Shown in pieces: positions 42,734-61,127 of a DNA stretch of 64,000 bases; position 1 is the stretch's first letter, and each line of letters opens with the position of its first letter. The notes beneath the pieces are model-generated. The model made no database searches. It saw only the letters and a program-made list of their open reading frames with translations, and was not told the DNA's origin. The DNA is from an uncultured Phycisphaeraceae bacterium (lineage in GTDB: Bacteria; Planctomycetota; Phycisphaerae; Phycisphaerales; UBA1924). Location: NCBI GenBank assembly GCA_964615765.1, contig CAZTQN010000004.1, positions 44,291-108,290 on the forward strand, written 5' to 3'. Both the position numbers and the translations under genes were made by a program.

Positions 42734-42789
42734 CGCTCCGGAAGCCCGCTTTTTCCCGGTCATTTCCGGCGGCGCGTGTACACTCTGCC

Positions 42790-45189
42790 ATGTCGATGAA
42801 AGCGGTTTCGTCCGTGCCCGTCGGGTCGCCACGATTTGCCCCGCGCGTGCTGAGCGTGGCGGCCGCGCTCGTGCTCTGCGCCGGCGCCGCCCGCGCCGTC
42901 CCGACCACCACGCCGCTGCTCACCCCCGGCTTCGATGACACCGCCGGCGTCGCCGCCGCCGCCTTCGCCGGGGCCTACGCCACCACCGACACCTTCGAAG
43001 ACTCCGTCGAGATCCGCGACGCCCGACTCAACCTCACACGCACCATCACGCGGGCCGAGATCCAGGCCCTCGCCCCATGGCTCGCGCTCGACGGCGGGCC
43101 CGACGGCCCCTCCGCCGTCGCCCTGTCCGCCTCCGGACGACTCGCCTTCATCCTCGTGCACGACGACACCGTGCCCGCCGACGGCCTGCCCTCCGACGCC
43201 GTGCTCCGCCTCGACCTCGGCACCGGCGCCCTCGCCCTCTTCGCTCGCCTCGACGCCTTCGACCGCGGCGACATCGCCCCGCACCTCGCCCTCGCCCACC
43301 ACCGCGGCCTGCTCTGGGTCGGCACCAACACCGCCGGCATCCGCGTCTATTCCGCCGGCGCCAACACCACCGCCGGCACACTGCTGACCACCTGGACTTT
43401 GCCCGCCGCCGGCGCGGGCCAGCCAGTCACCGGTATCACCATCGACCGCGACGCGAGCACGCTCTTCGCCTCAACGCCCACGGCCGTCTACCGCGCCAAC
43501 ATCCCCACCTCCACCGCCACCGCGCCGACGTGGACCACGCTCGTCTCCGGCTCGTCCGACATCCGGGCCATCGCCTGGGCCGAGCACTTCGGCGGGACGT
43601 CCAACCGCGGGCTCTATCTCCTCCGCGGCACGCCCACCCCCCCCGGCGCCCGCATCGACGTCGTCTCCTACTTCGACGCCTTCTCGACCACGCCCGTCAC
43701 GCCGACGCTGTACACCACGTCGACCACGCCGCAGTTCGACCTCGCCGCGACGGCGGAGGGCGCGCTGCTCGTCGGCGCTGACGAGGACGCGCTGATCATC
43801 CGCGACACCGCCGACACGCGCCTGACCTTCGACGCCTGGCTCACCGACGAGTTCACGCAGGTCGCGACCTTCGCGCGCCGCCTCATCTCGCCCGACGGCG
43901 AGCCCGCCGGCTGGGTCATCGACGCCGACACCGACCTCACCATCAACCGCTTCCACCCCGCCACGCCCGACGCCGCGGGGTGGACGGTCCTGATGCTGCT
44001 GATGGCCGACCATCTCTTCGACGACGCGCAGGCCAAGGCGCAGGTTACCACCGTGCTCACGCGCTATGCGGGCTTGTCGACCGACAACATCCGCCCCTCG
44101 CGCACGACCGACGGCATCTACCGCCACTGGATCGACCCGCTCACGGGTCAGGCCAAGCCGGGGTGGGATCCGGAGTTCGCGACGCTGAGCACGATGAAGA
44201 TCGTCGCCGCCGCGGCTCGGGCCGCCGCGATGTACCCGGACGACCCCGCCATCGTCCGGGCCGCGCACCGCATCATCTTCCGCACGCGCAACTACGACCC
44301 GTACATCCAGACCTTCGGCTCGCGGGCCATGGCCTTCAAGGGCGCCGCCGCCGGCGGGCCCGACTTCGGCTCCTTCGCCGCGCCGTTCCACGAGGGCGTC
44401 ATCTTCGTCGAACAAGCCGCGACCTATGGCGGGTCCTCGAGCCAATCCGCCTTCACCGCCTGGCTCAACCGGGCCGCGCTCCCGAGCGCCACGCTCCTCA
44501 CCGGCCAGCCCGTCACCTCGACAGCCAACGGCCTGTTCGAAGCCTCGTTCATCAGCCTTTACCCCGCGCTGCTCACGCCGTCATACCGCGCCAGCACCGC
44601 CTGGCAGGCCCAGGTGAACAACCTCCGCTGGTCGCACGCCGCGTGGACGGACGACAACGCCCCGCGCTACTTCACCGTCTTCTCCGCCGGCACGACCAAG
44701 CCCGAGTGGGGCGGCTACAACGCCGACTCGCTCTCCAACCGCCCGGGCAACGTCACCACGTTCACCTCGCTGCTCGCGATGTCGGCCCTGGGCGACGCTT
44801 CGCCCGCCGTCAGCGCGTACCACGCCTACCGCAAGGGCGCCCGCCAGACCTTCCGCACCGGCGCGAGCATCCTGTACCGTCGCAGCGACATCGACCGCGC
44901 CTACCTGCCCAACTCGGCGGGCCTGCCGGACGTCGCGCTCGGCGCGCTGGGCATCGCCGACCTGATCCAGCCCGGCTCGATCGACGCCGTGCTCGCCCGC
45001 GCGTACCCGACCATCGAGCAGTGCCCGACCGACGTCAACGCCGACGGCGCGATCACCGTCGAGGACCTCTACCGCCACGTCGCGGCGCCGACCGACCTCA
45101 ACGGCGACGGCGCCACCAACGCGTCCGACACCCGCTGCCTCGCGGCCTGGCTGCGCCGCAACGAATCAACCGACACGCGCACACGCTGA
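42790..45189 (+). CDS. Large secreted protein (799 aa) of unknown function with C-terminal dockerin/EF-hand-like repeats (not GC-terminated)
   Basis: The start is ATG 42790. The signal peptide is VLSVAAALVLCAGAARA. The N-terminal half has propeller-like strands (GLLWVGTNTAGIRVYSAG, TLFASTPTAVYRANIP). The C-terminal half is helix-rich and possibly a glycosidase-like alpha-toroid, but this is unverified. The C-terminus is CPTDVNADGAITVEDLY....DLNGDGATNASDTRCLAAWL. Confidence 0.7.
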   Translation: MSMKAVSSVPVGSPRFAPRVLSVAAALVLCAGAARAVPTTTPLLTPGFDDTAGVAAAAFAGAYATTDTFEDSVEIRDARLNLTRTITRAEIQALAPWLALDGGPDGPSAVALSASGRLAFILVHDDTVPADGLPSDAVLRLDLGTGALALFARLDAFDRGDIAPHLALAHHRGLLWVGTNTAGIRVYSAGANTTAGTLLTTWTLPAAGAGQPVTGITIDRDASTLFASTPTAVYRANIPTSTATAPTWTTLVSGSSDIRAIAWAEHFGGTSNRGLYLLRGTPTPPGARIDVVSYFDAFSTTPVTPTLYTTSTTPQFDLAATAEGALLVGADEDALIIRDTADTRLTFDAWLTDEFTQVATFARRLISPDGEPAGWVIDADTDLTINRFHPATPDAAGWTVLMLLMADHLFDDAQAKAQVTTVLTRYAGLSTDNIRPSRTTDGIYRHWIDPLTGQAKPGWDPEFATLSTMKIVAAAARAAAMYPDDPAIVRAAHRIIFRTRNYDPYIQTFGSRAMAFKGAAAGGPDFGSFAAPFHEGVIFVEQAATYGGSSSQSAFTAWLNRAALPSATLLTGQPVTSTANGLFEASFISLYPALLTPSYRASTAWQAQVNNLRWSHAAWTDDNAPRYFTVFSAGTTKPEWGGYNADSLSNRPGNVTTFTSLLAMSALGDASPAVSAYHAYRKGARQTFRTGASILYRRSDIDRAYLPNSAGLPDVALGALGIADLIQPGSIDAVLARAYPTIEQCPTDVNADGAITVEDLYRHVAAPTDLNGDGATNASDTRCLAAWLRRNESTDTRTR

Positions 45190-45199: not shown

Positions 45200-45931
45200 T
45201 CAAAAGCAACCGCCGAAGTACGACGCCAGGAAGTCAAACACGTCCTGCACGCTCAGCTCGCCCGAGCGGTTGTAGTCCGCGGGGCAGAAGCGGCACGACG
45301 TCGGCGAGCACGCGCCGGCGAGCACGGACAGCTCGAGCGTCTCGCAGGTCGCGATGTCAACGACCGTGCACGCGCCGGTCGTCGGGTTGCAGCACCCAGC
45401 CGACGCCCCGCCGTCGACCTGCACCGCCGGCGGGAACGTCAAGTCACTCGCGATCCAGCCGTAGATGGTCCGAAACGAGTGCGCGACGCTGATCGGCTGG
45501 TCGCTCGTGTGCCAGCGCACGCGCCCCGGGGACACGCCCGACAGGTGCACGTAGTACGTGCCCGGCTGCAGCACCGTCGGCGTGCTCGGCGTCGCGACGT
45601 ACGCGCTCACCGCCTGCACGCTCGGAATGTTCAGGTCCGCCACCGTCACGCCCGCAGCAATCCCGTCCGCCACGGCGATTCGCCCGCGCACCGGCGTCGC
45701 GGCGTCGCTGCTCAGCCCCAGCGTCACGCTCGTCAGCGTCCGCGTCCGCGTCACCGTGAACTGGACCGCGATTTCCTGCAGCGGGAAGTCGGCCGTCACC
45801 GTCGAGTTGAACGCCGGATGAAACGTCCCCGTCGGCATCGTCGTGAAGATCACCTCGCCCGCCGCCGCTCGACCGACCACCGCCGCCGCGGCAATACCGA
45901 GCAGCGCGAGCATCTTCGAAGCCGTGATCAT
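45200..45931 (-). CDS. Secreted protein with one six-Cys repeat and one GC-type dockerin-like repeat (ends ...YFGGCF)
   Basis: AAGGA lies upstream of ATG 45931. The signal peptide is MITASKMLALLGIAAAAVVGRAAA. The six-Cys unit is GCCNPTTGACTVVDIATCETLELSVLAGACSPTSC and the dockerin repeat is CPADYNRSGELSVQDVFDFLASYFGGCF. Confidence 0.75.
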   Translation of the reverse strand: MITASKMLALLGIAAAAVVGRAAAGEVIFTTMPTGTFHPAFNSTVTADFPLQEIAVQFTVTRTRTLTSVTLGLSSDAATPVRGRIAVADGIAAGVTVADLNIPSVQAVSAYVATPSTPTVLQPGTYYVHLSGVSPGRVRWHTSDQPISVAHSFRTIYGWIASDLTFPPAVQVDGGASAGCCNPTTGACTVVDIATCETLELSVLAGACSPTSCRFCPADYNRSGELSVQDVFDFLASYFGGCF

Positions 45932-46032
45932 CGGTCGTCCTTTCGCAGGTGCGGGCGGTAAAGGAGATCGGAGCCCGACCCGACCAATCCGCCGCCGCAC
46001 CCCGCGACTATCACGCCCGACACATCACGCCC

Positions 46033-46062
46033 AAAAAACACAGCCGGGCCCGAAGGCCCGGC
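46033..46062 (-). terminator. Intrinsic terminator after the 46097..47050 gene
   Basis: On the minus strand the sequence is GCCGGGCC-ttcg-GGCCCGGC followed by tgtgtttttt. On the plus strand the stem spans 46043-46062 and the A-run spans 46033-46038. Confidence 0.8.
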
Positions 46063-46096
46063 CGGAAGTGAACTGTGCTGTCGATCGGGGCGCCGC

Positions 46097-47050
46097 TCAG
46101 GCGCATCCGCCGAAGTACGCGCTCAGGTAGTCGAAGATGTCCTGCACGGTGATCCCGCCGGCGCCGTTGAAGTCGGCCCGCGGATCGCCGCTGAAGTACG
46201 CCGTCAGGAAGTCGAAGATGTCCTGCACCGTGAGCGAGCCGGAGTTGTTGAAGTCCGGGCGGCAGTCGTTGAAGCGGAAGCCCATGTCATCCCAGAAAAT
46301 CGTCCCCTGGCTGAACGCCAGGCTCTGCGGCGGGCCGAACCGCAGCGGGAGCACGCTCACCTTCGCGTCCGGGTTCTGCGGCGGGAGGGCCCACAGCTGC
46401 CCCGTGCCCGGGTTGATGTACAGCGCTTCGTTCTGCTGCACCGTGCGCTCGAACCGAACCCACTGATCGTTCGTGTGGATCCCCGGGCCGTTCGGCGTCG
46501 TCACAACCACAATCCCCGGAACGTTCGTCGCCACGTTCGGGTCGTTCGGGTTGATGTCCAGCCACTCGGGACCGACATAGGTCGAGTCGTTCACCGTGCG
46601 CCGGAACTCCAGCTTCAGCCCCGCACGCTGCCCCGCGAAGCCCGACAGCCCCTGGCTGACAAACGGCGTCGCCGACGGGATGTAGAAATAGCCCCACACC
46701 GTGATCGACGGCTCCCCGATCCCGAAGCGGTACCCCGCGTTGTTCACCGGGCTCCCCAGCGTCCCGCGGTCCAGCGGCGAGTTGCTCGAGAAGCCCGCGA
46801 AGTCCGAGCCCATCGGCAACTCGATGCTGCGCGTCCCCGTGCGAGCCACGGCGGCCGGCGTGAGCCCGTCACCGATCTCGCGGTACGTCGCCGAGTTGAA
46901 GCGGTCCCAGCCCGAGGGATACGACGCGTTGAACGGGTCCGGCGTTTCAAAGCTCGTGTTCTGCAGTTGCTGGAACGGCTGCGCCTGCGCGACGCCGCCC
47001 GCCGTCACACACGCGCCGATCGCCAGCGCCTTCATCATCCCGGTCTTCAT
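46097..47050 (-). CDS. Secreted jelly-roll/CBM-like protein with two GC-type dockerin-like repeats (ends ...YFGGCA)
   Basis: AGGAG lies upstream of ATG 47050. The signal peptide is MKTGMMKALAIGACVTAGGVAQAQ. The QNTSFETPDPFN...WDRF...GYFYIP...LKLEFRR pattern is reminiscent of CBM4/9/22-type beta-sandwiches. The C-terminus is CRPDFNNSGSLTVQDIFDFLTAYFSGDPRADFNGAGGITVQDIFDYLSAYFGGCA. Confidence 0.75.
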   Translation of the reverse strand: MKTGMMKALAIGACVTAGGVAQAQPFQQLQNTSFETPDPFNASYPSGWDRFNSATYREIGDGLTPAAVARTGTRSIELPMGSDFAGFSSNSPLDRGTLGSPVNNAGYRFGIGEPSITVWGYFYIPSATPFVSQGLSGFAGQRAGLKLEFRRTVNDSTYVGPEWLDINPNDPNVATNVPGIVVVTTPNGPGIHTNDQWVRFERTVQQNEALYINPGTGQLWALPPQNPDAKVSVLPLRFGPPQSLAFSQGTIFWDDMGFRFNDCRPDFNNSGSLTVQDIFDFLTAYFSGDPRADFNGAGGITVQDIFDYLSAYFGGCA

Positions 47051-47219
47051 GCTGATCTCCTGATGATCCGTTGATTGTTTCCCAGTGCCCAGGCCCCGTC
47101 CGCCCCGCTCCGCCGACAACCGCTCCAAACTCCCGCGACCCGCCCCGATAACCCACGCCGGCGCGGCCACCGGCGGCACGTCCGTAACCGCTTACATTCT
47201 GCCCCACATCCGGCCCCCG

Positions 47220-47238
47220 TGCAACTGTTCTGCAAACA
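47220..47238 (-). promoter_or_regulatory. Candidate operator: TGCAACTGTTCTGCAAACA (related to sites at 54450 and 55678)
   Basis: This is an AT-rich island in 70% GC DNA, 170 nt upstream of the 47050 start. It matches 14 of 19 positions of the site abutting the GH94 start and has the same direct-repeat layout, TG(A/C)AAC-N-TG(A/C)AAAC. Confidence 0.35.
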
Positions 47239-47292: not shown

Positions 47293-48153
47293 CTACTTCA
47301 GCCCCTCCGCCGCCACCCCCTTCACAAACGTCCGCTGCGTCAGCAGGAACAGCAGCAGCAGCGGCGACACCATCAGCGTGCTCGCCGCCATCAGCAGGTT
47401 CCACGGCGTGTTGCCCGCCTGCCCCTGGTACAGCTGCAGCCCCAGCGCCAGCGTGTACTGGTCCCGGTGCGTCAGAAAAATCAGCGGCCCCACAAAGTCG
47501 TTCCACACGTAGATGAAGTGGAACAGCGCCACCACCGCGAGCGCCGGCTTGCTGAGCGGCAGGATCATCCGCCAGAAAATCCCCCAGTGCGAGCACCCGT
47601 CGATCCGGGCCGCCTCGTCCAGGTCCCGCGGAATCGTGCGGAAAAACTGCCTCAGCATGAAGATGTTGAACGCCCCGCCGAACCACGCCGGCACCCAGAG
47701 CGGGCGCAGCGTCCCGATCCACCCCAGCTCACGGAACACCATGTACAGCGGCACCATGATCACCGGGAACGGGATCATCATCGTCGCCAATACCAGCGCG
47801 AACACCGTCCCTCGCCCGCGCCACTCGATCCGCGACAACCCGTACGCCACCACCGCGCTCGATAGCGTCATCCCGATCACGCCCAGGCTCGCGATGATCA
47901 GCGTGTTCCGCAGGTACAGCGGGAACTCGATCGTGGGGTCGTTCCACACGCTCGAGTAGTTCTCCCGGGCCACGCTCAGCGTCGATCCCGCCGGGTCGGG
48001 CAACAGCCGGATCCGCTGCGACGCGGCTTGGTTCTCGGGCTTCACGGACGTCGACACCATCCACACCAGCGGCGCAATGAACAGCACCCCGATGCTCGCC
48101 AGCACCGCGTACACCGCCGCCCGCCCAAACGTCTCGCTTCCCGACCGCCGCAC
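47293..48153 (-). CDS. Carbohydrate ABC transporter permease (MalG/CUT1-like)
   Basis: It has six hydrophobic segments and an EAA-loop motif, DLDEAARIDGCSHWGIFWRMILPLSKPAL. Confidence 0.88.
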   Translation of the reverse strand: MRRSGSETFGRAAVYAVLASIGVLFIAPLVWMVSTSVKPENQAASQRIRLLPDPAGSTLSVARENYSSVWNDPTIEFPLYLRNTLIIASLGVIGMTLSSAVVAYGLSRIEWRGRGTVFALVLATMMIPFPVIMVPLYMVFRELGWIGTLRPLWVPAWFGGAFNIFMLRQFFRTIPRDLDEAARIDGCSHWGIFWRMILPLSKPALAVVALFHFIYVWNDFVGPLIFLTHRDQYTLALGLQLYQGQAGNTPWNLLMAASTLMVSPLLLLFLLTQRTFVKGVAAEGLK

Positions 48154-48196
48154 CGAGTCCTCCGCTCCTTCCTGTTCCCCCCCTCGGCCCTCGGCC

Positions 48197-49090
48197 CTAA
48201 ACCCTGTAATAGACGAGCCGCCGACTCGCCCAGAACATCACCCCCGTCAGCCCCATCGTCACCAGCAGCAGCACCCACGCCATCGCGCTCGCGTACCCCA
48301 TCTTCAGGTACACGAACCCATTGTCATAGAGGTACATCGTGTAGAACAGCCCGCCGGGGTTCTGCCCGTCCTTGGTGCGGAACATGACGTACGGCGCCGC
48401 GAACACCTGCACGGTGTTGATCGCCAGCGTGATCACCGTGAACAGAATCGCCGGCGAGATCATCGGCACCGTGACGTTCACAAACCGGCGCACCGGCCCC
48501 ATTCCGTCCAGTTCCGCCGCCTCATACAACTGGCTCGGCACGTCCTGCAACGCCGCGACGTACACCACCACGCTCTGCCCCACGCCCCACAGGCTCATCA
48601 CCACCAGCGACGGCACCGCCCACGCCGGGTCCAGCAGCCAGTTCGGCCCCGTCACGCCCAGCGCCGCGAGCGCCTTATTCACCAGCCCGTACTCGGCGTT
48701 GAACAGCCACGACCACACCATCGCCGCGGCGACCAGCGGCACCAGCGTCGGGATGAACACCATCGCCTGCATCGCCCGCCCGAACCGCCCGCCCCCCACC
48801 CCGCTCCCCGCAAACACCGCCGCCAGAATCAGCCCGACGAGCGTCGACAGCGGGATCGAGACCGCCGCGAACACCGCCGTGTTCTTCACCGCCCGGATGA
48901 GTTCCGGATCCTCCAGCATCCGCCGGTAGTTCTCGAGCCCAACCCACAAGGGCGGCTCGAGCATCGAGTAATCCGTGAACGAGAAATACAAACTCAGCAC
49001 CATCGGCACGAGCATGAACGCCGTCGCGCCGATCAGCCACGGGCTGACCCACAAGAGGCCGATCGCCGTCGCCCGCGCCGACTTCTTCAC
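48197..49090 (-). CDS. Carbohydrate ABC transporter permease (MalF/CUT1-like)
   Basis: GTG 49090 overlaps the SBP stop (GTGA). The EAA-loop motif is QLYEAAELDGMGPVRRFVNVTVPMISP. The protein is polytopic. Confidence 0.88.
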   Translation of the reverse strand: MKKSARATAIGLLWVSPWLIGATAFMLVPMVLSLYFSFTDYSMLEPPLWVGLENYRRMLEDPELIRAVKNTAVFAAVSIPLSTLVGLILAAVFAGSGVGGGRFGRAMQAMVFIPTLVPLVAAAMVWSWLFNAEYGLVNKALAALGVTGPNWLLDPAWAVPSLVVMSLWGVGQSVVVYVAALQDVPSQLYEAAELDGMGPVRRFVNVTVPMISPAILFTVITLAINTVQVFAAPYVMFRTKDGQNPGGLFYTMYLYDNGFVYLKMGYASAMAWVLLLVTMGLTGVMFWASRRLVYYRV

Positions 49091-50478
49091 GCCCCACCCC
49101 CCCCACTCCCCGCGCTACCCGCGCCATACCGACGCAGCCGCTGCACCCGCGCCTGCTCGATCAGCCCCGCGCTGGTCGCCTGCATCCGCGCCAGCGCCGC
49201 CTCCGGCTCCTCGCGTCCGGCCCACATCCCCAGAGCCGCCACGTCGAACTTGTCCTTGATCTCCTGCCACACCCGCGTCGGCGGACAGATGAACGCCCGC
49301 GGGCTCGCGAACAGTTCGCTGTGCAAGCGCACGCCGCGGTTCGGGTGCTGCGCGATGAACGCCGCGCTCTGCGCCTTCAGCGGCGAGCCCTTGCAGTGCG
49401 CCGTCGCCAGAAACTCCGTTACGTCCTGCCGCTGCGTGTAGGCGATGAACGCCATGCTCGCCTCAGGATGCCGCGCCCCGCGCGGGATGACCAGCACATC
49501 GGTATCGATCAGCGTCACCGGCTCGTCCGCGCGGTACGCCGACTCATCCACCGGGAACGGAGCCACGCCGTACTCCATGCTCGGCGCAAACCGCTCCACC
49601 ATGTTCGCCAGCCACGGCCCCTGCACCACCATCGCGACCTTGCCCGTCAGGAACGCGTTCTCCGGCGTGTTGTAACTCCCGAATCCCGAGCGGAACCGCT
49701 CCACCTCCGCAAAGCCAAGTTCACGCGGGAACGACGCGTACCACCGGTACGCCGCCAGGTTTCCCGGCGCGTCCACCGTCGCGCGATCCTCCGCCGCGTC
49801 GTACAGCGATGCCCCGAAGTACGAGCCCCACATCCAGTTCCACCAGCCCGGCTCGGCGTGCAGAAACCCGACGCGCGTCAGCCGCCCGCTCGAATCCCGC
49901 CGCGTGATCCGCCGGTGCGCCTCGTTCAACTCCTGGATCGTCCGCGGCGGGCGCTCCGGATCGAGCCCGACCTCCCGCAGGATCGCCTTGTTGTAATACA
50001 TCGCCAGCGTGCCCGCCGTGTTCACCGCGGCCCACCACTGCCCACGATGCCGCATCACCTGCCGCACGCCCGGCGCATACTGCTCCAGGCTCAGCCCCGC
50101 CCCCGCCGCCAACTCATCCAGCGGTATGATTGCCCGGCTCTCGGCATACGGCGGGACGTTGAAGTTCCACAGCCCCAAGATGTCCGGCGGGTCGCCCCCG
50201 GCGATCGACGTCAACGCCTTCTGCCCGATCCCGCTCGTCACGATGTACCGCACAAACAGCCGATCCTGCGACCGGTTGAAGTCGTCCACGACGCGCTGCA
50301 TCGCGGCCCCTTCGTGCCCCGTCCACTTCTCCCAGTAGTTCAGCACCAGCCGCCCGCCGGTGTCGACACTCTTCCCCCGCGGCCCGAACAGCGCGAAGCC
50401 CAGCCCGCCCGCCGCGAGCGCACCGATCGCGGCACGGCGGGTCATCGACGCGGCGCTGCTCGGTCCGGCTCCCGTCAT
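49087..50478 (-). CDS. ABC transporter extracellular solute-binding protein (family 1, sugar-type) with Tat-like signal
   Basis: MTRRAAIGALAAGGLGFALF carries a twin-Arg. NYWEKWTGHEGAAMQRVVDDFNRSQ is a typical SBP_bac_1 start. The start is ATG 50478 or ATG 50445. Confidence 0.85.
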   Translation of the reverse strand: MTGAGPSSAASMTRRAAIGALAAGGLGFALFGPRGKSVDTGGRLVLNYWEKWTGHEGAAMQRVVDDFNRSQDRLFVRYIVTSGIGQKALTSIAGGDPPDILGLWNFNVPPYAESRAIIPLDELAAGAGLSLEQYAPGVRQVMRHRGQWWAAVNTAGTLAMYYNKAILREVGLDPERPPRTIQELNEAHRRITRRDSSGRLTRVGFLHAEPGWWNWMWGSYFGASLYDAAEDRATVDAPGNLAAYRWYASFPRELGFAEVERFRSGFGSYNTPENAFLTGKVAMVVQGPWLANMVERFAPSMEYGVAPFPVDESAYRADEPVTLIDTDVLVIPRGARHPEASMAFIAYTQRQDVTEFLATAHCKGSPLKAQSAAFIAQHPNRGVRLHSELFASPRAFICPPTRVWQEIKDKFDVAALGMWAGREEPEAALARMQATSAGLIEQARVQRLRRYGAGSAGSGGGGA

Positions 50479-50515
50479 CGCGTCAATCTATCCGCCAGCC
50501 ACACGCCTGGCCCGT

Positions 50516-50872
50516 TCATGGTGTCGGGTTGTTGGCACGCACCGCCGCCACTTCAGCGTTGATGCGGCTGACGAGCTGCTCCCAATCGTCGGTGAACCCG
50601 GTCGGCTTGCCGGTCGTCGGGTTGTTGACGCCAACGTTCGGATCGATCGGGTGCGCACGCTCGTACAACTGCTTTTCCAGCACGCCGCGGAGCATCTTCC
50701 ACGTCTCGCCGGTCTCGCGATCCTTGATGACCACCTCGCCCGCCAACACCGCAGTTTGCCCGCCGCCGGTCCCGCGCCACGCGAAGAACGCGGCGACACC
50801 GACAAGAACCACCACAAGCACCACCGCAACGGCCGGCTTTTTCAGCAGATCACGCACGCGATCCTCCGTCAC
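50516..50872 (-). CDS. Small N-terminally anchored protein, unknown function
   Basis: The start is GTG 50872. A single TM helix, KKPAVAVVLVVVLVGVAAFFAW, is followed by a soluble ~80-aa domain with balanced composition. The gene sits inside the sugar-uptake operon. Confidence 0.6.
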   Translation of the reverse strand: MTEDRVRDLLKKPAVAVVLVVVLVGVAAFFAWRGTGGGQTAVLAGEVVIKDRETGETWKMLRGVLEKQLYERAHPIDPNVGVNNPTTGKPTGFTDDWEQLVSRINAEVAAVRANNPTP

Positions 50873-50899
50873 ATCCGTCAGCGCGGCCGCCCACAGTGA

Positions 50900-51793
50900 T
50901 CACTGCCCGGTCTCATCACTGGGGATGCCGCCCCAAGAGAAGAAATTGCTGCCGAAGCCGTACTTGTCCGAGCCCTGGTTGGCGCGCTGGCGGGAGATCC
51001 CGTCGACCCGCAGGTCGCCGCGCAGCATGTGCAGCAGGTTCGACCGCGACGTGTTCGCGACCGTCTCGCGGTCCGGGCGGGTCCGCGCGCCGTGCCGCGG
51101 AACTTCGTCGTACGCGTCGGCCATCCACACCATCTCGTCCGGAGCCTTCACCACGCGCATCGGCCGATTGGTGGACACGCCGGTCCGGCTGAAGAACTCG
51201 TTGTCGTTGAACCAATACTCCGTGTACCGCCGGATCGTCGGCTTGGTCTGCGTGACACTGAGGGAGTAGTCCGGGTCGACCGGGTCCAGGAAGAGGCGGC
51301 GTCCCTGAACCTCCAAGTACTGACGCACCAGCGGATCCTTCACCGACGTCGCGCCGGCCGCACGCGGGCACTTGTAGACACTGCTCCGCACGTTCTCGCC
51401 AAGGAACTCCTCGAGCGCGTAGCCCATGAACCAGTGGCACCGGCTGGTCTGCGGGATCGAGCCGAAATCCGTGTCCAGCCGCAGCTCTTCCGGCACATCG
51501 GCGATGGGGATCTTCCGCGCAAACAGGTTGGGCCACACCGGCTCCCGCTGCGCGTCCAGATACATCTGGATCGCGTACCCCACCTGGCGCATGTTGCTCT
51601 TGCAGATCACATCCCGGGCCGCGTCTCGCGCCGCCCCCAGCGACGGCAGCAAAATCGAGATCAGCAGCGCAATGATCGCGATCACCACCAGCAGCTCGAT
51701 GAGCGTGAACCCGCTCGCGCCCTGGGCCCGCCGCGCCCGCGCGCGGCTGATCACCACCGCCGTCCATCCCGTCACGCTCTTCGGACCGCTCAT
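50900..51793 (-). CDS. Prepilin-type N-terminal cleavage/methylation domain protein (DUF1559/H-X9-DG-like; here H-X8-DG)
   Basis: From ATG 51793 the protein reads ...[32 protein letters not shown]. Near the C-terminus it has [11 protein letters not shown]. The track ORF start at 51958 is an upstream extension. Confidence 0.85.
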
Positions 51794-51852
51794 GATCGGT
51801 CTCCTGTCTGCGCCGGCCGCGAGAACCGCGCCCGCCGCGTTGTATCCACGCA

Positions 51853-54447
51853 TCAACCCGGCAACGTACTGGCCCCGGCCGCCTTCGCGCCCGACGCCCG
51901 CACCTGCACCCCACCCGCCCCCCCACCATTCGCCCCGCCCGACACGCCCGCCTCCCACGCGACGGTCACGTCGATCGTCCCCGTCCCGCCATCATCTTCT
52001 ACGCGGACCACGTTCCCCTGGTGCGCTTTGCCGTTCACGTTCAGCACGACGCGCCCGTCGGCCCGCCACTGCTTCGCGTCAAACCGCACGCGCACCCGCT
52101 TGCCGCGCCACACGCGCGTCGCCTCCACCTCGCCCAAGGCCGCGAACGGCACCGGATCGATCACGAGCCCGTCCCACACCGCCCGCACGCCCAGAATCCA
52201 CTCCAGGCTCACGCGATTCAGCCACGCCGCGCTGCCCGTGTACCACGTCCACCCCGCCTTGCCCGGCGTGGGGGAGATCGGCCCGTCCACATTCCCCGGC
52301 GTCACAAACGGTTCGGCGACGTACGCGTCCGCGTCCTGCCCGCGCAGCGGCGGCGAGATGCTCCGCCAGATCTTCTCGACGCTCTCGATATCCCGCCGCT
52401 TGCACGCCGCCGCCAGCGCCCACGTCGCCGCGTGCATGTACACGCCGCCGTTCTCGCGAAGCCCCGGCGCATACCGCGTGATGTACCCGATCGTCTCGTC
52501 CGGCGTCGTGTACGCCGGATAGCTCAAGACCGGGCCCATCGGGTGCAGCAGATGCTCGCGCACGCTGGCCCAGCAGGCGTCCTCACGCTCCTTCGGCGCC
52601 GTGCCGCTCAGCACGGCCCACGTCTGCGTGTTCAGGAAGATCTTGCCCTCGGCGTTCGACGCGGTGCCGATCCAGCGCCCGTCATCACGCGTCGCGGCCC
52701 GGTACCACCGCCCGCCGGAACTTCCCGACCCACCCGCCGACCCGCCGTCCGCATCCCACGCGTGCGCATTAACCGCGTCGATCAACGCCGCGCGGGCCTT
52801 GCGATACTCGCCCGCGAGCGCGATCTCCGCCGCTCCGTGCCCGTTGTGCCCCTTGGCCGTGTGCTCCAGCACGTGGGCGAAATCTTCTAGCACCACGCAC
52901 AGCCACTGGGCCAGCCACACGCTCTCGCCCTTGCCCTCGACGCCCATCGACGACAGGCCGTCGTTCCAATCGCACGACCCGATCAGCGGCAGCCCGCGCG
53001 GGCTCTGCCGCTTCAGGCTCTTGGCGATCGACCGCCGGCAGTGCTCCAGCAGCGTCGCTCCGGAGGCATCATCCACAAACGGTGCCCGCTCGTTCAGGAT
53101 GGCCCAGTCGCCCGTGTCCTTGATGTAGTTCGCCGTGATGTACGCCAGCCACAGGTAGTCGTCGCTGCACGCCGTCCGCAGGCCCATCTCCGCCAAGGGG
53201 TGCCACCAGTGGTACACGCTCCCGTCGGCGAACTGGTGGGCCGCGTGCAGCAGGATCTGCTTGCGCGTCTGCGCCGGATCCCGCGGCAGCCACACCTGGC
53301 TGTCCTGCAGTTGATCGCGGAACCCGAACGCGCCTGACTGCTGGTAATACCCCGTCCGCCCCCACAAGCGCCCGCTGATCGCCTGATACGCCAGCCACCG
53401 CGAGTTCAGCATGTCGAAGTCCGGCATCGCCGACTTCACGCGGCTGGGCCCCGTGATCGTCTCCCACATCGCCGCCGCACCGTCGATCGCCTGCGCCGCC
53501 GCCTCCGGCGTCGTGAACGTGTCGATCAACTTCAGCGCCGCGGCTTCATCATCGCCGATCGCTATGGTGAACACGACCTCGACCGTCTGCCCCGGCGCGA
53601 GGCGAAGATCTCCGCCGAGCGCGCCCGCCGCGTCGCCGTACCGCCCGAAGTTCTGCGGCGCGTCCACACCCGGGATCGTCGTCGCCGTCATCACCTGCGG
53701 GCGATGCTCGCCGGTGTACCGACCCATGAACGTTGCCTTGTCGGCGATCGCCAGCGTCGCGTCAAACGGACCGCGCACGCCATGGGCCGCGACATACGGC
53801 CACGGGTGATTCCAGTGCTTCTTCTCCCGCTCGACCGGGCCCAGGTCGTTGCGGTGCGGCGCGTCCCACATGTTCTTGTGCGCGACGATCGCGTGCGTCC
53901 CGCCGGCGCGCTGTTCGTGCCGCGTCGTGAAGAACAGGCGGTGAAACTCTCGCTTGATGTCCGGCGCCACGCCGCAGCACCACTCGAAGAACGACGCGAC
54001 ACGAATACGCCGCGCCTTCGCGCTCGTGTTGGTGATCTTCAGCCGCCAGACTTCGACGGTCTCCCGCGCGTCAACGGCGAGCGTCCACTCCGTCCGGATC
54101 CCGCCGCGCGACGCCACGAACGTCGTGCTCCCGACGGCGTGCGTGCACGCGTACTCATCCAGCGTCGCCTGGCACGGCCCCGGGGCCGCCGACCACACGT
54201 CGCCCGTGTCCAGATCGCTCAGATAGAGGAACTTGCCGCGCCCATCGCGGGCCAGGTCCATGTCCCACCGGGTGAGGACGTTGAGCTGGGAGTTGTCACA
54301 CCAGGTGAAGCCCCCGCCGTTCTGGCTGATGACCAGCCCGATGCGCCCGTTGCAGATCACGTTCACCCAGGGCATGGGCGTGCGGTGATCACGGATGGTG
54401 AAGGCTCGACCGGTCGGATCAAAGGCCCCGTAGCGATTGGCAAGCAT
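51853..54447 (-). CDS. GH94-family glycoside phosphorylase (cellobiose/cellodextrin/beta-1,2-oligoglucan phosphorylase family)
   Basis: From ATG 54447 the protein reads [31 protein letters not shown]...GGGFTW...GKFLYLSD (compare cellobiose phosphorylase MRYGHFDD..YVIT.P.TP.PWINYLG). Other motifs are [43 protein letters not shown] and [12 protein letters not shown]. There is no signal peptide. TTG 54498 is an alternative start. Confidence 0.85.
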
Positions 54448-54449
54448 AG

Positions 54450-54468
54450 TGAAACTGTTGCTGAAACA
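54450..54468 (-). promoter_or_regulatory. Candidate operator abutting the GH94 start codon: TGAAACTGTTGCTGAAACA
   Basis: Two direct TGAAAC hexamers lie 12 nt apart, immediately 5' of ATG 54447. The site shares TGAAACTGTT with the palindrome at 55678-55692. Confidence 0.35.
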
Positions 54469-54652
54469 CCCCACGACCGGCGGACGCGGTCCCTGCAACC
54501 GCTTACACGCACATCATGCCCGCTCTCTCCCGCCGCGTCAACTCCAATCGTCCTCGCGGTGTGGAAATCTCCGCTTTCTGACTCCCGGGATGGTCCGAAG
54601 TCGTGGGTTCTTTCGAACCCCCCGCCGGGCGGATGCCCAAACGGGGCGGAGC

Positions 54653-54687
54653 AATAAAGAAGGGGGCGGCCGTTGTTGGCCGCCCCC
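54653..54687 (-). terminator. Intrinsic terminator after the 54719..55486 gene
   Basis: On the minus strand the sequence is GGGGGCGGCC-aacaac-GGCCGCCCCC followed by ttctttatt. On the plus strand the stem spans 54662-54687 and the A/T-run spans 54653-54661. Confidence 0.8.
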
Positions 54688-54718
54688 TCGCAGGAGAGTG
54701 TTGTGCAAAGAGCCCGAA

Positions 54719-55486
54719 TCAGCGGCGGCGACGCAGCGCCACCAGCCCGCCCAGGGCCATCACGCCCGCGGCGCTCGGCGCCGGGATGCCGATGATGCTG
54801 ATGTTGCTGAACTGCACGTCGGCCTGGCCGGGGTTGAACGCGAAGTTGTTCTGGGTGTACACGCCGACGAGGCTGTTGTCAGCCCAGCCCTGGAACGTGC
54901 CGCCCGCGTTCAGCGGCGCGGTGAACACGCCGTTGACGCCGTAGCGGACGAACGGCCCGCCGTCCGCGGTGCCGACGTAGATGATCTGCATCAGGAAGTC
55001 GCTGCCGACCGTCGCACGCGGGATCGCGTTGTTTTCCGGCTGGTTGTTGGAGAAGAACGGCATGCGACCGCCGAACGACGCGATTTCGCCGCCGTTGCCG
55101 GGCAGCAGCACGAAGTTGCCGACGTCGGCCTGGAACGAGGAGGGATAGAACGGCGCGGTGCCGATCCAGATCCCGGCTTCCGACACCAGCGGGCCGTTGA
55201 TGCGCCCGGTCACGGTCAACTGCCAGGACTCGGCGGCGCCGAACTGGTAGTTCGCCCCGTTGACGGCGAGCGCCGCGTGGTGGCGATTCGCGAACCCGGT
55301 CGTCGCCGTGTTGGTTTCCTGCCAGCGGATCCCGCCCAGCCCGTTGTTGGTGATCGCCAGGTTGCTGCTGGGCAGATCGTTGAACCAGCGCGTGCCCGCG
55401 TCGTTCAGGCTGTTGATGGTGCTGACTTGCCCCGCCGCCGCGCCGGCGCACATGGCGACGGCCAGAATCGCACAGATATTCCGCAT
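54719..55486 (-). CDS. Secreted protein with PEP-CTERM-like C-terminal sorting signal
   Basis: GAGGAG lies upstream of ATG 55486. The signal peptide is MRNICAILAVAMCAGAAAGQ. The C-terminus is IGIPAPSAAGVMALGGLVALRRRR. Confidence 0.75.
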   Translation of the reverse strand: MRNICAILAVAMCAGAAAGQVSTINSLNDAGTRWFNDLPSSNLAITNNGLGGIRWQETNTATTGFANRHHAALAVNGANYQFGAAESWQLTVTGRINGPLVSEAGIWIGTAPFYPSSFQADVGNFVLLPGNGGEIASFGGRMPFFSNNQPENNAIPRATVGSDFLMQIIYVGTADGGPFVRYGVNGVFTAPLNAGGTFQGWADNSLVGVYTQNNFAFNPGQADVQFSNISIIGIPAPSAAGVMALGGLVALRRRR

Positions 55487-55677
55487 TTCTCGTTCTCCTC
55501 GCTCTTGGCCCGGCGTCAACCGGGTGATGAGTCACACAAACCCACGGGTCACGTGTCCCGTAATCGCTTACATCATGCCGCCGATTCCGGTTGCACGCAA
55601 GTCTTTCCGCACGAATTCGGCGTGCAACCCAACACCCCGGTAGTCCCCCCGGGCCGGTTCCCCTCTGACGCCCCGTC

Positions 55678-55692
55678 CTGAAACTGTTTCAG
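55678..55692. promoter_or_regulatory. 15-bp perfect palindrome CTGAAAC-T-GTTTCAG (LacI/GalR-type operator-like)
   Basis: It lies 8 nt downstream of the GH144-like stop and 192 nt upstream of the 55486 start. It closely resembles the TGAAAC/GTTTCA half-sites of Cra/FruR-type LacI-family operators. A LacI-family gene lies 1.7 kb away. Confidence 0.45.
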
Positions 55693-55699: not shown

Positions 55700-57307
55700 T
55701 CACCGCCGCGACGGCCCCACGCCGATCCGCCCGTACGTCGCCTGTACCCACGGGTGACTCTCGAACAGCCGCCAGATCAGCCCGCTCCGCGCGTTCTCGA
55801 TCGCCAAGGTCAGCGGGCCCTGGTCGATCGCCACGCAGTCCGGAGCGACCCACCCGGTGCCCAGGTTGAACGAGTCCTGGAACCCGAAGTTGGGTTTCGA
55901 GCACGGGTCCGCCGCCGGCTCGCGCCACACCAGCGGCGTCCCGTCCGCCTTCTTGAGCGACCGGTAATACCGCAGGGCCGCCACCGCCCGGGCCGGGTCG
56001 AACATGATCGCGCACCCCGCCCCATACGGCGGGATCGTGCCGTCGCCGAAGTCGTCCTTGGGCGTGAACACCGCGAAGTCCACCTCCGGCTTGGCGTCCG
56101 ACACCTGCACCGCATCGGGAAACACGCCCGGCACGGCGTATCCCGTCACCGCGTCGTTCGCCGTCAGGCCCCACGCGTTCTCGCCCAGCGTCGGCACGCC
56201 CTTCGGGTTCGCCTCCGCCTTGAGTTGGTGCAGGCGCACCGCGCGACGGCTGTTCTCCCACCAGTCGACCCGCGGGCGGCGCTCGACGCCCTTCGCCGCC
56301 GGGTCGTCCGGCCCGCGCCCGGCGTAGTCCATGAACAGGTGCGCGAAGAAGTTGGTGAACAGCGCGCCCGACCACGGAAACCACACCATCGCCCCCGCGT
56401 CGCCGTACGTCCCCATCTGCCGCCGCAGCCGGTAGTACAACCGCTCGTCCACGCGATGCTCGGCCTTCGGCGACAAGGCCGCGAAGAAACTCACCAGCCG
56501 GTGCTCATCGCCCGAGTCGGCCCAGTAATACGGCAGGATCGCCCCGTCCCCCGTCGGGTTCTTGAAGTCCTTGGCCTTCCACCCCAGCGTGATGTACCCC
56601 TTCATGTGCGGCTCGTGCGCACGCGGGGTCTGCTCGACAAAGAACGTCCAGTCCGCCGCGGCGAGCATGCGGTCGGCCCGCTCCCGCGCCTCGCCCCCGA
56701 AGTACATCCCCGACACGACAAACCCGCCGAACAGCAGCGCCGTGTCGATCGTGCTGACCACGTCGTTGTCGATCGGCTTGGCGGTCTTGCCGTCGAGGAA
56801 GTGATAGAACACGCCCGCCTTGCGGTTGGTCGGCTCGTTCTCCAGCGCGCGCAGAATGCGCAGCGTCCGCTCTTCACCCTGGGCCCGCGTGATGTACCCG
56901 CGCTCGACCGCCGCCGGGATGGCGGCCAGTTGAAACCCCACGCCCGCAACGCTCGCGAACGACGCGCTCGACCGGTCGAACACCATCCCGGTCGCCGGGT
57001 CGCACGCGCACCACAAGTACCAGAACGACGCCCGCTGCACCTCATCCAGAAACCGCTCATCGTCGGCCGAGAACGCAAAGGGCGGGCGCGGCACACCCGC
57101 GGGGGATTCGATCGTCCACTCCGCCGCCCGTTTCGGCTGGGCCGGGGTCGGCGGGGGCGCGATCCACGTCGCCGCCGGCCTGTCGCGCCCCTCCGGCAAA
57201 CGGCCCACGGAATGACCGGCGCACCCGCTCAGCATGGTGAGAACCCCCGCGAAAATGCCGGCGGCGCACCCGATCCGCACTGTTCCCGATGATGTAAGCC
57301 TTTGCAT
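55700..57307 (-). CDS. GH144-like (DUF3131 / glucoamylase-like) putative endo-beta-1,2-glucanase, lipoprotein
   Basis: From ATG 57307 (alternative ATG 57325) the protein starts MQRLTSSGTVRIGCAAGIFAGVLTMLSGC, which carries a lipobox. Other motifs are ERFLDEVQRASFWYLW, GVGFQLAAI, TIDTALLFGG, and the C-terminal NFGFQDSFNLGTGWVAPDCVAIDQGPLTLAIENARSGLIWRLF typical of this family. The part of track ORF 55700..58447 above 57325 is antisense to the LacI gene. Confidence 0.65.
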   Translation of the reverse strand: MQRLTSSGTVRIGCAAGIFAGVLTMLSGCAGHSVGRLPEGRDRPAATWIAPPPTPAQPKRAAEWTIESPAGVPRPPFAFSADDERFLDEVQRASFWYLWCACDPATGMVFDRSSASFASVAGVGFQLAAIPAAVERGYITRAQGEERTLRILRALENEPTNRKAGVFYHFLDGKTAKPIDNDVVSTIDTALLFGGFVVSGMYFGGEARERADRMLAAADWTFFVEQTPRAHEPHMKGYITLGWKAKDFKNPTGDGAILPYYWADSGDEHRLVSFFAALSPKAEHRVDERLYYRLRRQMGTYGDAGAMVWFPWSGALFTNFFAHLFMDYAGRGPDDPAAKGVERRPRVDWWENSRRAVRLHQLKAEANPKGVPTLGENAWGLTANDAVTGYAVPGVFPDAVQVSDAKPEVDFAVFTPKDDFGDGTIPPYGAGCAIMFDPARAVAALRYYRSLKKADGTPLVWREPAADPCSKPNFGFQDSFNLGTGWVAPDCVAIDQGPLTLAIENARSGLIWRLFESHPWVQATYGRIGVGPSRR

Positions 57308-57403
57308 CACTAGAACGTACCGCATCGGCTCGATATCTTCAAGACGGTGCTGCCCAAGGATGCCCGAAACCACCTCGACCCTCGGGCCGCCCGGCCGGCG
57401 TCC

Positions 57404-58396
57404 ATGGAAGATGTCGCCCGCGTCGCCGCGGTCTCCACGGCGACCGTCAGCCGGGTTCTGAACAACCCCGGGCTGGTCGCGCCCGAAACCGCCGCCCGCG
57501 TTCAGCGGGCCATCGAAGAGCTCGGCTACAAGCCCAACGTCTTCGCCCAGGGCCTCATGACCCGGCGCAGCCGCCTGCTGGGACTGCTGCTCCCGGACAT
57601 TCACGGCGAGTTCTACTCCGAACTCCTCCGCGGCGCCGACGCCGAGGCCCGCCGCCAGAACTACCACCTGCTGGTCGCCTCCGAGGGTGGGGGCGGCGAT
57701 ACCGACGTGACGCCCATGTTCTCCGGCGCCGTCGTCGGGTTCCTGGGCGGTCTGGCGATCATGCTGACCGAGCCCAACGAATCGCTCGCGCGGGAAGCCC
57801 GCACCGCGAACCTCCCCATCGTCGTCATCGACGACGACTTCGCCGGCGAGCACGTCGACCGCGTGCTGGTCGACAACGCCGCCGGCACGCGCGAGGCCGT
57901 TGATCACCTGCTCGCGTCCGTCCCGCCGGACCGCTGCTACTTCATCGGCGGCCCGCGTTCGAACTTCGACTCGGCCCAGCGGGCCCGCGCCTTCGCCGAG
58001 CGCCTCGCCGAAGTCGCCCCCGTCGACCCCGCCCGCGTCCGCTCCGGCGAGTACAGCGTCGAATCCGGCCAGCGCCTCGCCGCCGAGATTCTCGACCAGC
58101 GCACGTCCAAGGCGCCCATCGGCGTGCTCGCGGCGAACGACGAGATCGCGTATGGCGTCATGCTCGCTGCCCAGGACCGAGGGCTCGATGTCCCGCGCGA
58201 TGTCCGCATCGTCGGCTTCGACGACACCCGCCTCGCGTCGCTCGTGCGCCCGCAGATGAGCAGCGTGCGCGTTCCGATGTCCGAAGTCGGCGCCTCCGCC
58301 GTGCGCCTGCTCGTGCAGCGGGCCGCCGACCCGGCCCGCCCCGGCGAGACCATCCGCCTGGCCACACGCCTGATCGTCCGCGCAACCAGCGCCTGA
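57404..58396 (+). CDS. LacI/GalR-family transcriptional regulator
   Basis: From ATG 57404 the protein reads MEDVARVAAVSTATVSRVLNNPGLVAPETAARVQRAIEELGYKPN (HTH). This is followed by a periplasmic-binding-fold sugar domain (VLAANDEIAYGVMLAAQDRGLDVPRDVRIVGFDD). GTG 57347 is an alternative start. Confidence 0.88.
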   Translation: MEDVARVAAVSTATVSRVLNNPGLVAPETAARVQRAIEELGYKPNVFAQGLMTRRSRLLGLLLPDIHGEFYSELLRGADAEARRQNYHLLVASEGGGGDTDVTPMFSGAVVGFLGGLAIMLTEPNESLAREARTANLPIVVIDDDFAGEHVDRVLVDNAAGTREAVDHLLASVPPDRCYFIGGPRSNFDSAQRARAFAERLAEVAPVDPARVRSGEYSVESGQRLAAEILDQRTSKAPIGVLAANDEIAYGVMLAAQDRGLDVPRDVRIVGFDDTRLASLVRPQMSSVRVPMSEVGASAVRLLVQRAADPARPGETIRLATRLIVRATSA

Positions 58397-58546
58397 TCTG
58401 GTCGAAGCGCCCGGCCCGCAGCCTGAACGCTGCTCAATCTGAACCATCTTTCACGTCCGCGCTGGACCTTCAGCACGCCGGTGCGACCCGTCTACGGTTG
58501 GCCCGCGGCGACCGCCCCCAACCTCGCGTCGCCGCCGGAGACCGAC

Positions 58547-61084: not shown

Positions 61085-61127
61085 AGTCCCTGCAACCTGT
61101 CCGTGCACGCCCGGGTACACTGCGCGC

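Follow-up and report, generated by a model that had tools for sequence, protein, structure and literature searches.

A pilin-like protein and a small anchored partner within a conserved phosphorylase/ABC importer operon of Phycisphaerales

INTRODUCTION

In the archaeon Sulfolobus, proteins of the pilin type are tied to sugar uptake by ATP-binding cassette (ABC) importers that depend on solute-binding proteins, an arrangement known as the ‘bindosome’ (PMC3047682). The binding proteins of this system themselves carry class III signals, and their genes are accompanied by those for a dedicated ATPase and platform, BasEF. A comparable association occurs in a 64,000-nucleotide stretch of contig CAZTQN010000004.1, from an uncultured bacterium of the family Phycisphaeraceae; we refer to this whole stretch as the ‘window’. 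Six minus-strand genes specify, in the direction of transcription, a GH94 phosphorylase, a prepilin-type protein (‘PIL’), a small anchored protein (‘SMALL’), a sugar-binding protein (‘SBP’) and two ABC permeases. The locus differs from the bindosome in that the SBP has a twin-arginine signal, the pilin-like protein is a separate polypeptide and no assembly genes are present. PIL and SMALL prove to be fixed members of this operon, and in what follows we describe its conservation, its proteins and its control, and consider what the pair might do.

By its N-terminus PIL resembles the pilins and pseudopilins GspG, ComGC and PilA, which have a leader ending in G or A, the sequence FTLIE with glutamate at position +5, and a hydrophobic N-terminal helix. 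Members of the type IV filament superfamily carry a globular head on a helix of ∼50 residues, the architecture also predicted for PIL. Unlike these pilins, PIL has a head (∼215 aa) without a significant solved relative, and its gene lies in an importer/phosphorylase operon rather than a pilus or secretion cluster, with no assembly genes nearby. Competence pseudopili and DNA-uptake pili use a retractile pilin fibre (ComG or type IV pilus) to take hold of a polymer outside the cell; the polymer is then passed to a periplasmic binding protein (ComEA) and a membrane channel (ComEC). The likeness of PIL to that system is a functional analogy only: the polymer would be a glycan, and homology is limited to the pilin N-terminus.

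Planctomycetes have pili-like fibres that bind glucan before its uptake into the periplasm, and dextran-coated gold binds such fibres at crateriform structures (PMC5394234). An initial annotation of the window, read from the sequence before this analysis, had appealed to this background, and the literature bears it out. The fibres were studied in the class Planctomycetia, whereas our locus belongs to the Phycisphaerae; their protein composition is absent from PMC5394234, and no link between them and DUF1559 proteins or an ABC operon is reported in the open-access literature searched. Bindosome, DNA-uptake pseudopili and dextran-binding fibres are the nearest functional ideas to the present locus, and none matches it in components.

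On the carbohydrate side, the closest relatives are the beta-1,2-glucan clusters of Listeria innocua (lin1839-1841) and Streptomyces griseus (SGR_2422-2427), which share with the locus the glucanase group and a CUT1 importer (PMC12369401). A GH1 beta-glucosidase is common to the locus and the S. griseus cluster, and a GH94 phosphorylase to the locus and the Listeria cluster. By size the GH94 enzyme of the locus falls in the ∼840-aa class of the cellobiose phosphorylases, and it has no close relationship to those 1,2-beta-oligoglucan phosphorylases that have been characterised. Neither a pilin-like gene nor a small anchored gene is listed for the Listeria and Streptomyces clusters as described in PMC12369401.

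THE SIX-GENE UNIT AND ITS CONSERVATION

Open reading frames (ORFs) were chosen by third-position G+C content—the window is ∼70% G+C—and then checked by domain search against Pfam and NCBIfam profiles. The six co-directional genes of the initial annotation were recovered as described (Table 1), and their coordinates give the gaps reported there: 59, 27, 37, -4 and 43 nt. The second of these stands as a distance between ORFs, but becomes 42 nt with the start that we prefer for SMALL. This start, GTG 50857, has a GGAGG Shine-Dalgarno sequence and gives a product identical to database protein P0121; it is probably the true one, and the protein would then be 113 aa. The GH94 start is most likely ATG 54447 because a LacI-type operator occupies 54494-54507, and because orthologues begin at the equivalent residue. 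PIL has an AGGAG Shine-Dalgarno sequence 7 nt ahead of its ATG.

The phosphorylase matches both Pfam GH94 domains (E 1.1e-91 and 2.4e-62), and the remaining genes include a CUT1-type importer set: a family-1 solute-binding protein and two permeases of the MalF/MalG type. The twin-arginine signal assigned to the SBP in the initial annotation is well founded, R14 and R15 being invariant across 10 orthologues; the same alignment reveals no obvious lipobox or AxA cleavage site, and no pilin site of the FTLIE type. Among proteins of known structure, the SBP is most similar in sequence to 4r9f (E 6e-39); Lin1841 is matched at E 6e-8. The operon had been said to lack an ABC ATPase, and no ATPase of the MalK type was found by tblastn anywhere in the window. 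Many CUT1 systems rely on an ATPase encoded elsewhere. In one orthologous locus (L088:544-1671, minus strand) a MalK-type ATPase gene (ABC_tran, OB_MalK, TOBE_2) adjoins the LacI gene, and so provides there the part that the window lacks.

Scanning metagenomes with the alignment of the SBP as seed yielded 80 loci. SMALL lies directly 5′ of the SBP gene in 50 of the 80; among these, PIL is present in all 43 with at least 1.4 kb of upstream sequence, and GH94 in all 30 with at least 4 kb. PIL has its place between GH94 and SBP in these 43 loci and in about 12 other contexts. The complete order GH94-PIL-SMALL-SBP-permease-permease is kept in L001-L003, L084, L085, L087-L091 and L093-L096. Every locus looked up through PIL homologues of 62% to 37% identity has the full six-gene order, the gene order is intact down to 32% identity, and three distant relatives of SMALL were found, again, in the six-gene context. 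In several genomes the GH94 and PIL genes, and the SMALL and SBP genes, overlap by 4 nt. The arrangement recurs in dozens of independent contigs, and so is far beyond chance. All named homologues are from Phycisphaerales or Phycisphaerae, and the placement of PIL and SMALL is conserved across the order Phycisphaerales.

The surroundings of the unit are less constant. Orthologous loci usually have LacI, GH144-like and ∼250-aa genes upstream and a gene for a protein of ∼260-330 aa downstream, but the genes for exported proteins come and go. The GH144-like gene occurs in 18 of 21 loci and the gene for a PEP-CTERM-like protein in 14 of 21, both upstream of GH94, and the dockerin gene, downstream of permease 2, in 14 of 20. 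PIL is constant where these vary: PIL and SMALL are retained together in L089, which has no GH144-like gene, and in L116 and L157, which have neither upstream exoprotein gene. The six genes are the invariant core of the locus, and PIL and SMALL are fixed members of the phosphorylase/importer operon.

Values of dN/dS, the ratio of nonsynonymous to synonymous substitution rates, are 0.07 for PIL, 0.17 for SMALL, and 0.12 for each of GH94, SBP and permease 1, calculated for the single independent pair of loci with usable divergence (dS near 1). These values are indicative of purifying selection on PIL and SMALL.

Several loci depart from the standard arrangement. In L139 (3422-5911) the order between GH94 and SBP is PIL-SMALL-PIL-SMALL, the pair having been duplicated in tandem as a unit. 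In L123 (3644-5755) and L124 (1104-3189) an extra PIL follows SMALL, also between GH94 and SBP, and L091 has an additional gene after SMALL. In L148 (250-1233) a different DUF1559-like ORF (…FADGSARGF…), apparently without a hydrophobic pilin helix, is directly 5′ of a related SBP gene. L128 (1-7338), from contig ORBV01000916.1, divides the gene set between the two strands: one has the GH144-like, PEP-CTERM-like and GH94 genes, and the other those for LacI, SBP, permeases and dockerin protein, with neither PIL nor SMALL ahead of SBP within the stretch read.

THE PREPILIN-TYPE PROTEIN

Both its N-terminus and its architecture place PIL in the prepilin-type superfamily. A look-up of the PIL protein of the window returned no database record. 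Its leader of ∼28 aa ends in G at the cleavage site and is followed by glutamate at +5, and the protein scores above the cutoffs of two prepilin models (TIGR02532, 26.9 bits against 16.3; PF07963, 27.8 against 21.2). Its N-terminus has its highest scores with the pseudopilins GspG and ComGC. In 37 orthologues, F29, T30, L31, I32, E33 and L34-V37 (F+1 to V+9, Glu+5 included) are invariant, as are the prepilin site and the hydrophobic helix. The AlphaFold model (pLDDT 83, pTM 0.79) has an N-terminal helix of 50 residues (31-80) followed by the head. A Foldseek search of the PDB with this model gave no match at E≤0.001; the best was a type IVb pilin at E 2.

The head is conserved in its own right. 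C142, E192, D197, D226, H234 and G288 are invariant among 53 orthologues, and C64 is kept in at least 90% of them. The signature as a whole comprises C142, E192/Y193, D197, D226-A-x-D229-x-x-P232-R-H234, G259-D260, D276 and W287-G288. Conserved cysteines together with a cluster of acidic, histidine and aromatic residues would fit an exported binding domain. A function as a solute-binding protein, suggested by the Pfam short name ‘SBP_bac_10’, was considered for PIL and rejected, since hhalign against the operon SBP gave a probability of 0.06%.

The relationship of PIL to DUF1559 (PF07596) appears to be that of a divergent match confined to the N-terminus. PIL scores 23.3 bits, exactly the cutoff of 23.3, with only profile positions 2-32 of 268 aligned; 36 of the 37 orthologues match the profile at E≤0.01, weakly, the best at 3e-9. 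The helix motif R..A.C..N.RQ.G.A...Y corresponds to the first ∼31 positions of PF07596, and PIL has this motif and a phylum-level distribution in common with the family. The two differ at the C-terminus, where PIL has the signature DAxDExPRH…(insert)…GD in place of the H-X9-DG of that prepilin-associated family; none of the 37 orthologues matches the NCBIfam H-X9-DG model at E≤0.01. The initial annotation had noted an H-X8-DG motif in PIL. It is there (H255-X8-D264G265), but neither H255 nor the DG is kept in orthologues, and we have dropped it as a family feature, as peculiar to the one sequence in the window.

A second prepilin-type gene (40072-41022, minus strand) is situated ∼10 kb from PIL. 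The leader of its product ends in RRA|, the resemblance to PIL is in the N-terminal helix alone (BLASTP E 7e-6 over 72 residues), and the products of the neighbouring genes have no family matches.

THE SMALL ANCHORED PROTEIN

Alignments of SMALL delimit a conserved domain of ∼75 aa with the pattern ETGExW…G..E..L..R…G..NP.TGK.TGF…W. The AlphaFold model (pLDDT 83.5) has an N-terminal helix at residues 13-34; positive charges precede it, which would suggest a topology with the N-terminus inside and the C-terminus outside. A single-sequence search returned only SMALL itself, and a profile was required to find its relatives: when 1.84 billion representative proteins were searched exhaustively with it, there were 104, nearly all of 100-180 aa. 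Foldseek gave no fold match in the PDB at E≤0.001. Zinc-ribbon-like matches at E ∼1 were too weak to be used.

IS THE ASSOCIATION A PROPERTY OF DUF1559 PROTEINS?

According to the initial annotation, the DUF1559 family has no assigned function, and it is still so described in the open-access literature (PMC10632474). That literature contains no report from these phyla of a pilin-like gene in a sugar ABC operon, or of DUF1559 genes with carbohydrate-active enzymes. The suggestion that the family at large is tied to sugar transporters was compared with a background of 80 loci of the generic prepilin/DUF1559 type (1.06 Mb in all, from Planctomycetota, Verrucomicrobiota and Lentisphaerota), retrieved by a PIL-alignment scan whose DNA patterns came from the universal pilin helix; these are not PIL orthologues. 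By tblastn none of the 80 has an SBP or permease homologue at E<1e-3, and by profile hidden Markov models the SBP family is found in none and a related permease in just two, within 10 kb. In this sample, taken without a matched null, there is no enrichment for DUF1559 at large, and the suggestion does not hold.

The PIL group, unlike generic DUF1559 members, is locked to the importer operon: the locus-specific orthologous group is fully linked. The PIL-SMALL pair is specific to the operon and not an expression of a general DUF1559 property. The direct role in a sugar pathway that had been proposed gains support for PIL and SMALL, as fixed operon members, and fails as a trait of the whole family.

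CONTROL REGIONS AND THE WIDER LOCUS

A LacI-type palindrome of 14 nt, TGTAAGCSNTTRCR, occurs five times in the 64 kb, where 0.10 occurrences are expected, although the pattern was built from four of these five sites and only the fifth is independent. The candidate operator sequence of the LacI protein is TGTAAGCGGTTRCR. One copy directly follows a promoter-like sequence ahead of GH94, and the two together are likely to be the control region of the six-gene unit (Table 1). By pattern search, no operator occurs inside the unit here or in 41 other orthologous loci; operator-like sites are found no more than 250 nt upstream of GH94 in 7 of 27 other assessable loci, and elsewhere just after permease 2. 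Scans by consensus match only revealed no strong promoter or terminator signal from GH94 to the last permease. The two strongest terminator-like hairpins of the consensus scan lie at 54689-54660 and 46064-46041, and the former closes the upstream transcription unit. All of this fits a single predicted transcript from GH94 to permease 2 under LacI control. Fixed position, purifying selection and the lack of an internal control site together argue for a direct, if predicted, role of PIL and SMALL in the sugar pathway.

The other operators mark further units. Operator TGTAAGCGGTTACG precedes the dockerin gene, which is therefore a separate, co-regulated unit; L101, L103, L117, L130, L151 and L154 each have such a site at the equivalent place. 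An operator at the 5′ end of ORF 60966-64000 (plus strand) suggests that this gene may belong to the same regulon. The ORF extends past the window edge, and specifies more than 1000 aa with an F5/8 type C (discoidin) domain.

The LacI gene is divergent from the glucanase gene, and has the same position in L084, L085, L087, L088, L090 and L093. The GH1 gene is downstream of it and co-directional. The start of the GH144-like gene is ambiguous (GTG 57280, ATG 57307 or ATG 57325); its product has a lipoprotein-type signal (…LSGC, the lipobox being taken from the translation), and matches the sequences of 5z06 (BDI_3064), 8xul (XCC2207) and 5gzh, an endo-beta-1,2-glucanase, at E 5e-32 to 3e-27. The 255-aa PEP-CTERM-like protein has no Pfam or NCBIfam match. 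The two secreted proteins encoded beyond permease 2 both end in repeats resembling the GC-type dockerin (…SVQDVFDFLASYFGGC). Next to them, ORF 42244-45189 (plus strand; 981 aa) has coding-like third-position G+C and no Pfam or NCBIfam match.

An AT-rich motif, AACAGTTKCA, occurs on the minus strand at 47220-47229, 54450-54459 and 55679-55688, in the control regions of the dockerin, GH94 and PEP-CTERM-like genes; the pattern was derived from these three sites, and has no others in the window, where 0.07 would be expected. A palindrome, CTGAAACAGTTTCAG, includes one of the copies. GC skew is about -0.13 to -0.25 throughout 32000-64000, where most genes are on the minus strand.

Table 1. Genes and control elements of the locus, numbered from the first nucleotide of the window
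Feature	Position	Strand	Basis or remarks
GH94 phosphorylase, cytoplasmic, 864 aa	51853-54447 (longer ORF to 54498)	-	Pfam GH94 supersandwich and catalytic domains
PIL, prepilin-type protein, 297 aa	50900-51793	-	N_methyl/TIGR02532, AlphaFold
SMALL, bitopic membrane protein, 113-118 aa	50516-50872 (likely start GTG 50857)	-	Alignments, AlphaFold
SBP, CUT1-type sugar-binding protein, twin-arginine signal	49087-50478	-	Pfam SBP_bac_1/SBP_bac_8
ABC permease 1, MalF/UgpA-like	48197-49090	-	BPD_transp_1, NCBIfam
ABC permease 2, MalG/UgpE-like	47293-48153	-	BPD_transp_1, NCBIfam
Promoter-like TTGACG-17-CATGAT (54541-54513), then directly operator TGTAAGCGGTTGCA (54507-54494)	54494-54541	-	Likely to control the six-gene unit
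Terminator-like hairpin, 12 bp, 10 GC, T-rich tail	54660-54689	-	Closes upstream transcription unit
Secreted 255-aa protein, signal peptide, PEP-CTERM-like C-terminus (…PAPSAAGVMALGGLVALRRRR)	54719-55486	-	Translation, tail by eye
LacI-type operator TGTAAGCGATTACG	55559-55572	-	5′ of PEP-CTERM-like gene, pattern search
GH144-like endo-glucanase (PF10091 ‘Glycoamylase’)	55700-57280	-	Pfam E 2e-33
LacI-type operator TGTAAGCCTTTGCA	57293-57306	+	LacI/glucanase divergent region, pattern search
LacI-family regulator	57347-58396	+	NCBIfam LacI models, E down to 9e-54
GH1 beta-glucosidase	58481-59929	+	Glyco_hydro_1 E 1.5e-142; TIGR03356 BGL equivalog 514 bits (cutoff 478)
LacI-type operator TGTAAGCCGTTGCA	61129-61142	-	5′ end of ORF 60966-64000 (+)
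LacI-type operator TGTAAGCGGTTACG	47183-47196	-	5′ of dockerin gene, pattern search
Secreted protein, GC-type dockerin anchor	46097-47050	-	NCBIfam NF041540 (dockerin_GC), 42.6 bits (cutoff 29)
Terminator-like hairpin, 10 bp, 9 GC, T-run	46041-46064	-	
Choice-of-anchor-R secreted protein	45200-45934	-	NCBIfam NF041539

DISCUSSION

The locus reads as one for glucan utilisation under LacI control, and its substrate is probably, if tentatively, beta-1,2-glucan or the oligosaccharides of this polymer. Among the three points on which this assignment rests are the GH144-like enzyme and the GH1 beta-glucosidase, an enzyme that the S. griseus cluster also has (PMC12369401).

What PIL does for this pathway can be answered only tentatively. 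The account that we put forward as the likeliest, and that we hold to be plausible but short of probable, is that PIL is a substrate-specific, pilin-like module for glycan capture or hand-off that serves the importer. The lipoprotein glucanase and the surface-anchored proteins would work on the polymer in the cell envelope. PIL would be exported, cleaved by a prepilin peptidase encoded elsewhere, and probably built into a type IV filament, a pseudopilus or a short periplasmic stub, as predicted because the cleavage site and Glu+5 are retained. Its large, structurally novel head would recognise the glycan of the locus, and PIL and SMALL together would capture this glycan or pass it to the twin-arginine-exported SBP and the two permeases. 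Import would be powered by an ATPase encoded elsewhere, and GH94 and GH1 would complete degradation in the cytoplasm.

A more specific version casts PIL as a substrate-specific subunit of a retractile type IV filament that would bind beta-1,2-glucan at the outside of the cell and draw it through a secretin into the periplasm, where SMALL and SBP would take over. We regard this as doubtful. If true, it would represent an outer-membrane route for glycans in place of the SusC/D or TonB-dependent systems on which other diderms rely, and one PIL-type head per glycan would explain the dozens to hundreds of DUF1559-type paralogues in bacteria of the Planctomycetes–Verrucomicrobia–Chlamydiae (PVC) group.

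Several observations weigh against a role in capture or hand-off. We infer that role from gene neighbourhood and pilin biology. The window encodes neither a prepilin peptidase nor the machinery of a pilus or of type II secretion (GspE and GspD were sought by tblastn), and mature PIL, at ∼270 aa, is large for a major pilin. Neither the PIL nor the SMALL model has a significant structural match, so that no carbohydrate-binding fold can be claimed. Related SBPs (40-53% identity) occur in 21 loci without PIL or SMALL, and this type of transporter thus has no general need of the pair. The neighbours in these loci are GH1, alpha-fucosidase, GHL10 proteins and PEP-CTERM proteins, and once a secretin and a T2SSE ATPase. 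In L138 (1-260) the PIL orthologue ends 54 nt before SBP with no SMALL between, the only case in which SMALL is missing, and the estimate of selection comes from one pair of loci. The substrate, too, has evidence against it: the characterised 1,2-beta-oligoglucan phosphorylases are absent from the GH94 search matches at E≤1e-10, and the similarity of the SBP to Lin1841 is weak (E 6e-8). It is on account of these distant phosphorylases and this weak likeness that we call the substrate assignment tentative.

Type II secretion systems have pseudopilins among their established components, and PIL, with SMALL, might instead be a locus-specific pseudopilin that acts as an adaptor for secretion or display. 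It would steer a machine of general purpose, for type II secretion or a type IV filament, to export the exoproteins of the locus or expose them at the surface (the GH144-like lipoprotein and the PEP-CTERM-like and GC-dockerin proteins), without handling glycan at all. At least three exported or surface proteins are encoded at the locus, GspG and ComGC are the very proteins against which the N-terminus of PIL scores best, and L158 has secretin and T2SSE ATPase genes directly 5′ of a related SBP operon. The exoprotein genes vary from locus to locus, however, each with its own operator-bearing control region; PIL and SMALL sit invariably between cytoplasmic GH94 and SBP, and persist in L089, L116 and L157 where some of the upstream exoprotein genes are missing. 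PIL is linked more tightly to GH94 and the importer than to the exoproteins, and for this reason we favour uptake over secretion, and consider an adaptor unlikely, though a real alternative. In L158 (1-4373, plus strand), the secretin (PF00263) and T2SSE-type ATPase genes are followed on the same strand by a thioredoxin-like gene and the SBP-permease-permease operon, which has neither PIL nor SMALL.

A scaffold that forms no filament, the bacterial counterpart of the bindosome idea, merits about the same degree of belief as the adaptor. PIL, held in the inner membrane by its pilin helix, would bind no glycan, and with SMALL would make up a scaffold or chaperone in the periplasm, there to dock, stabilise or concentrate the SBP at the permeases. 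This, too, is a real alternative. The sugar-binding proteins of Sulfolobus depend on pilin-type signals and on small pilin-like Bas proteins (PMC3047682); the SBP of our locus, with its invariant RR signal and no obvious lipobox or AxA site, may perhaps need a tether, and the overlaps of SMALL with SBP and of GH94 with PIL, with expression at the level of the operon interior, would suit such a part. Against this, the SBP itself has no pilin-type signal, related SBPs function elsewhere without the pair, and the strict conservation of Glu+5 and the peptidase site would be superfluous in a plain anchor. PIL and SMALL could also be a sensor that detects extracellular or periplasmic glycan and tunes transporter activity or gene expression. 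SMALL is predicted to be bitopic with a conserved periplasmic domain, and the pair is specific to one substrate locus, but the cytoplasmic part of SMALL is ∼12 residues long and has no output domain, and regulation is already explained by a LacI repressor with matching operators; this we consider very improbable. That PIL is a DUF1559-type gene that landed in the operon by chance, and has no role with sugars, is effectively excluded. Genes of this type abound in these phyla, with 68 paralogues in P. limnophila (PMC10632474), and the window has another prepilin-like gene ∼10 kb away. Yet the position of PIL is kept in every assessable locus, to the lowest identities found; its dN/dS is 0.07; its partner family, SMALL, is dedicated and essentially restricted to these loci; and in L139 the two have been duplicated as a unit.

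Prepilins of the DUF1559 type rank with the largest families of paralogues that Planctomycetota and related bacteria possess. The locus connects one protein of this type, and a partner family that had escaped notice, to a defined sugar pathway under the control of a repressor. With a predictable substrate and a small set of genes, the entry of polysaccharides through the outer membrane of these bacteria becomes testable. If the pair is indeed an accessory of the importer, this would be, to our knowledge, the first case in bacteria of an ABC sugar importer that has a pilin-like component dedicated to it.

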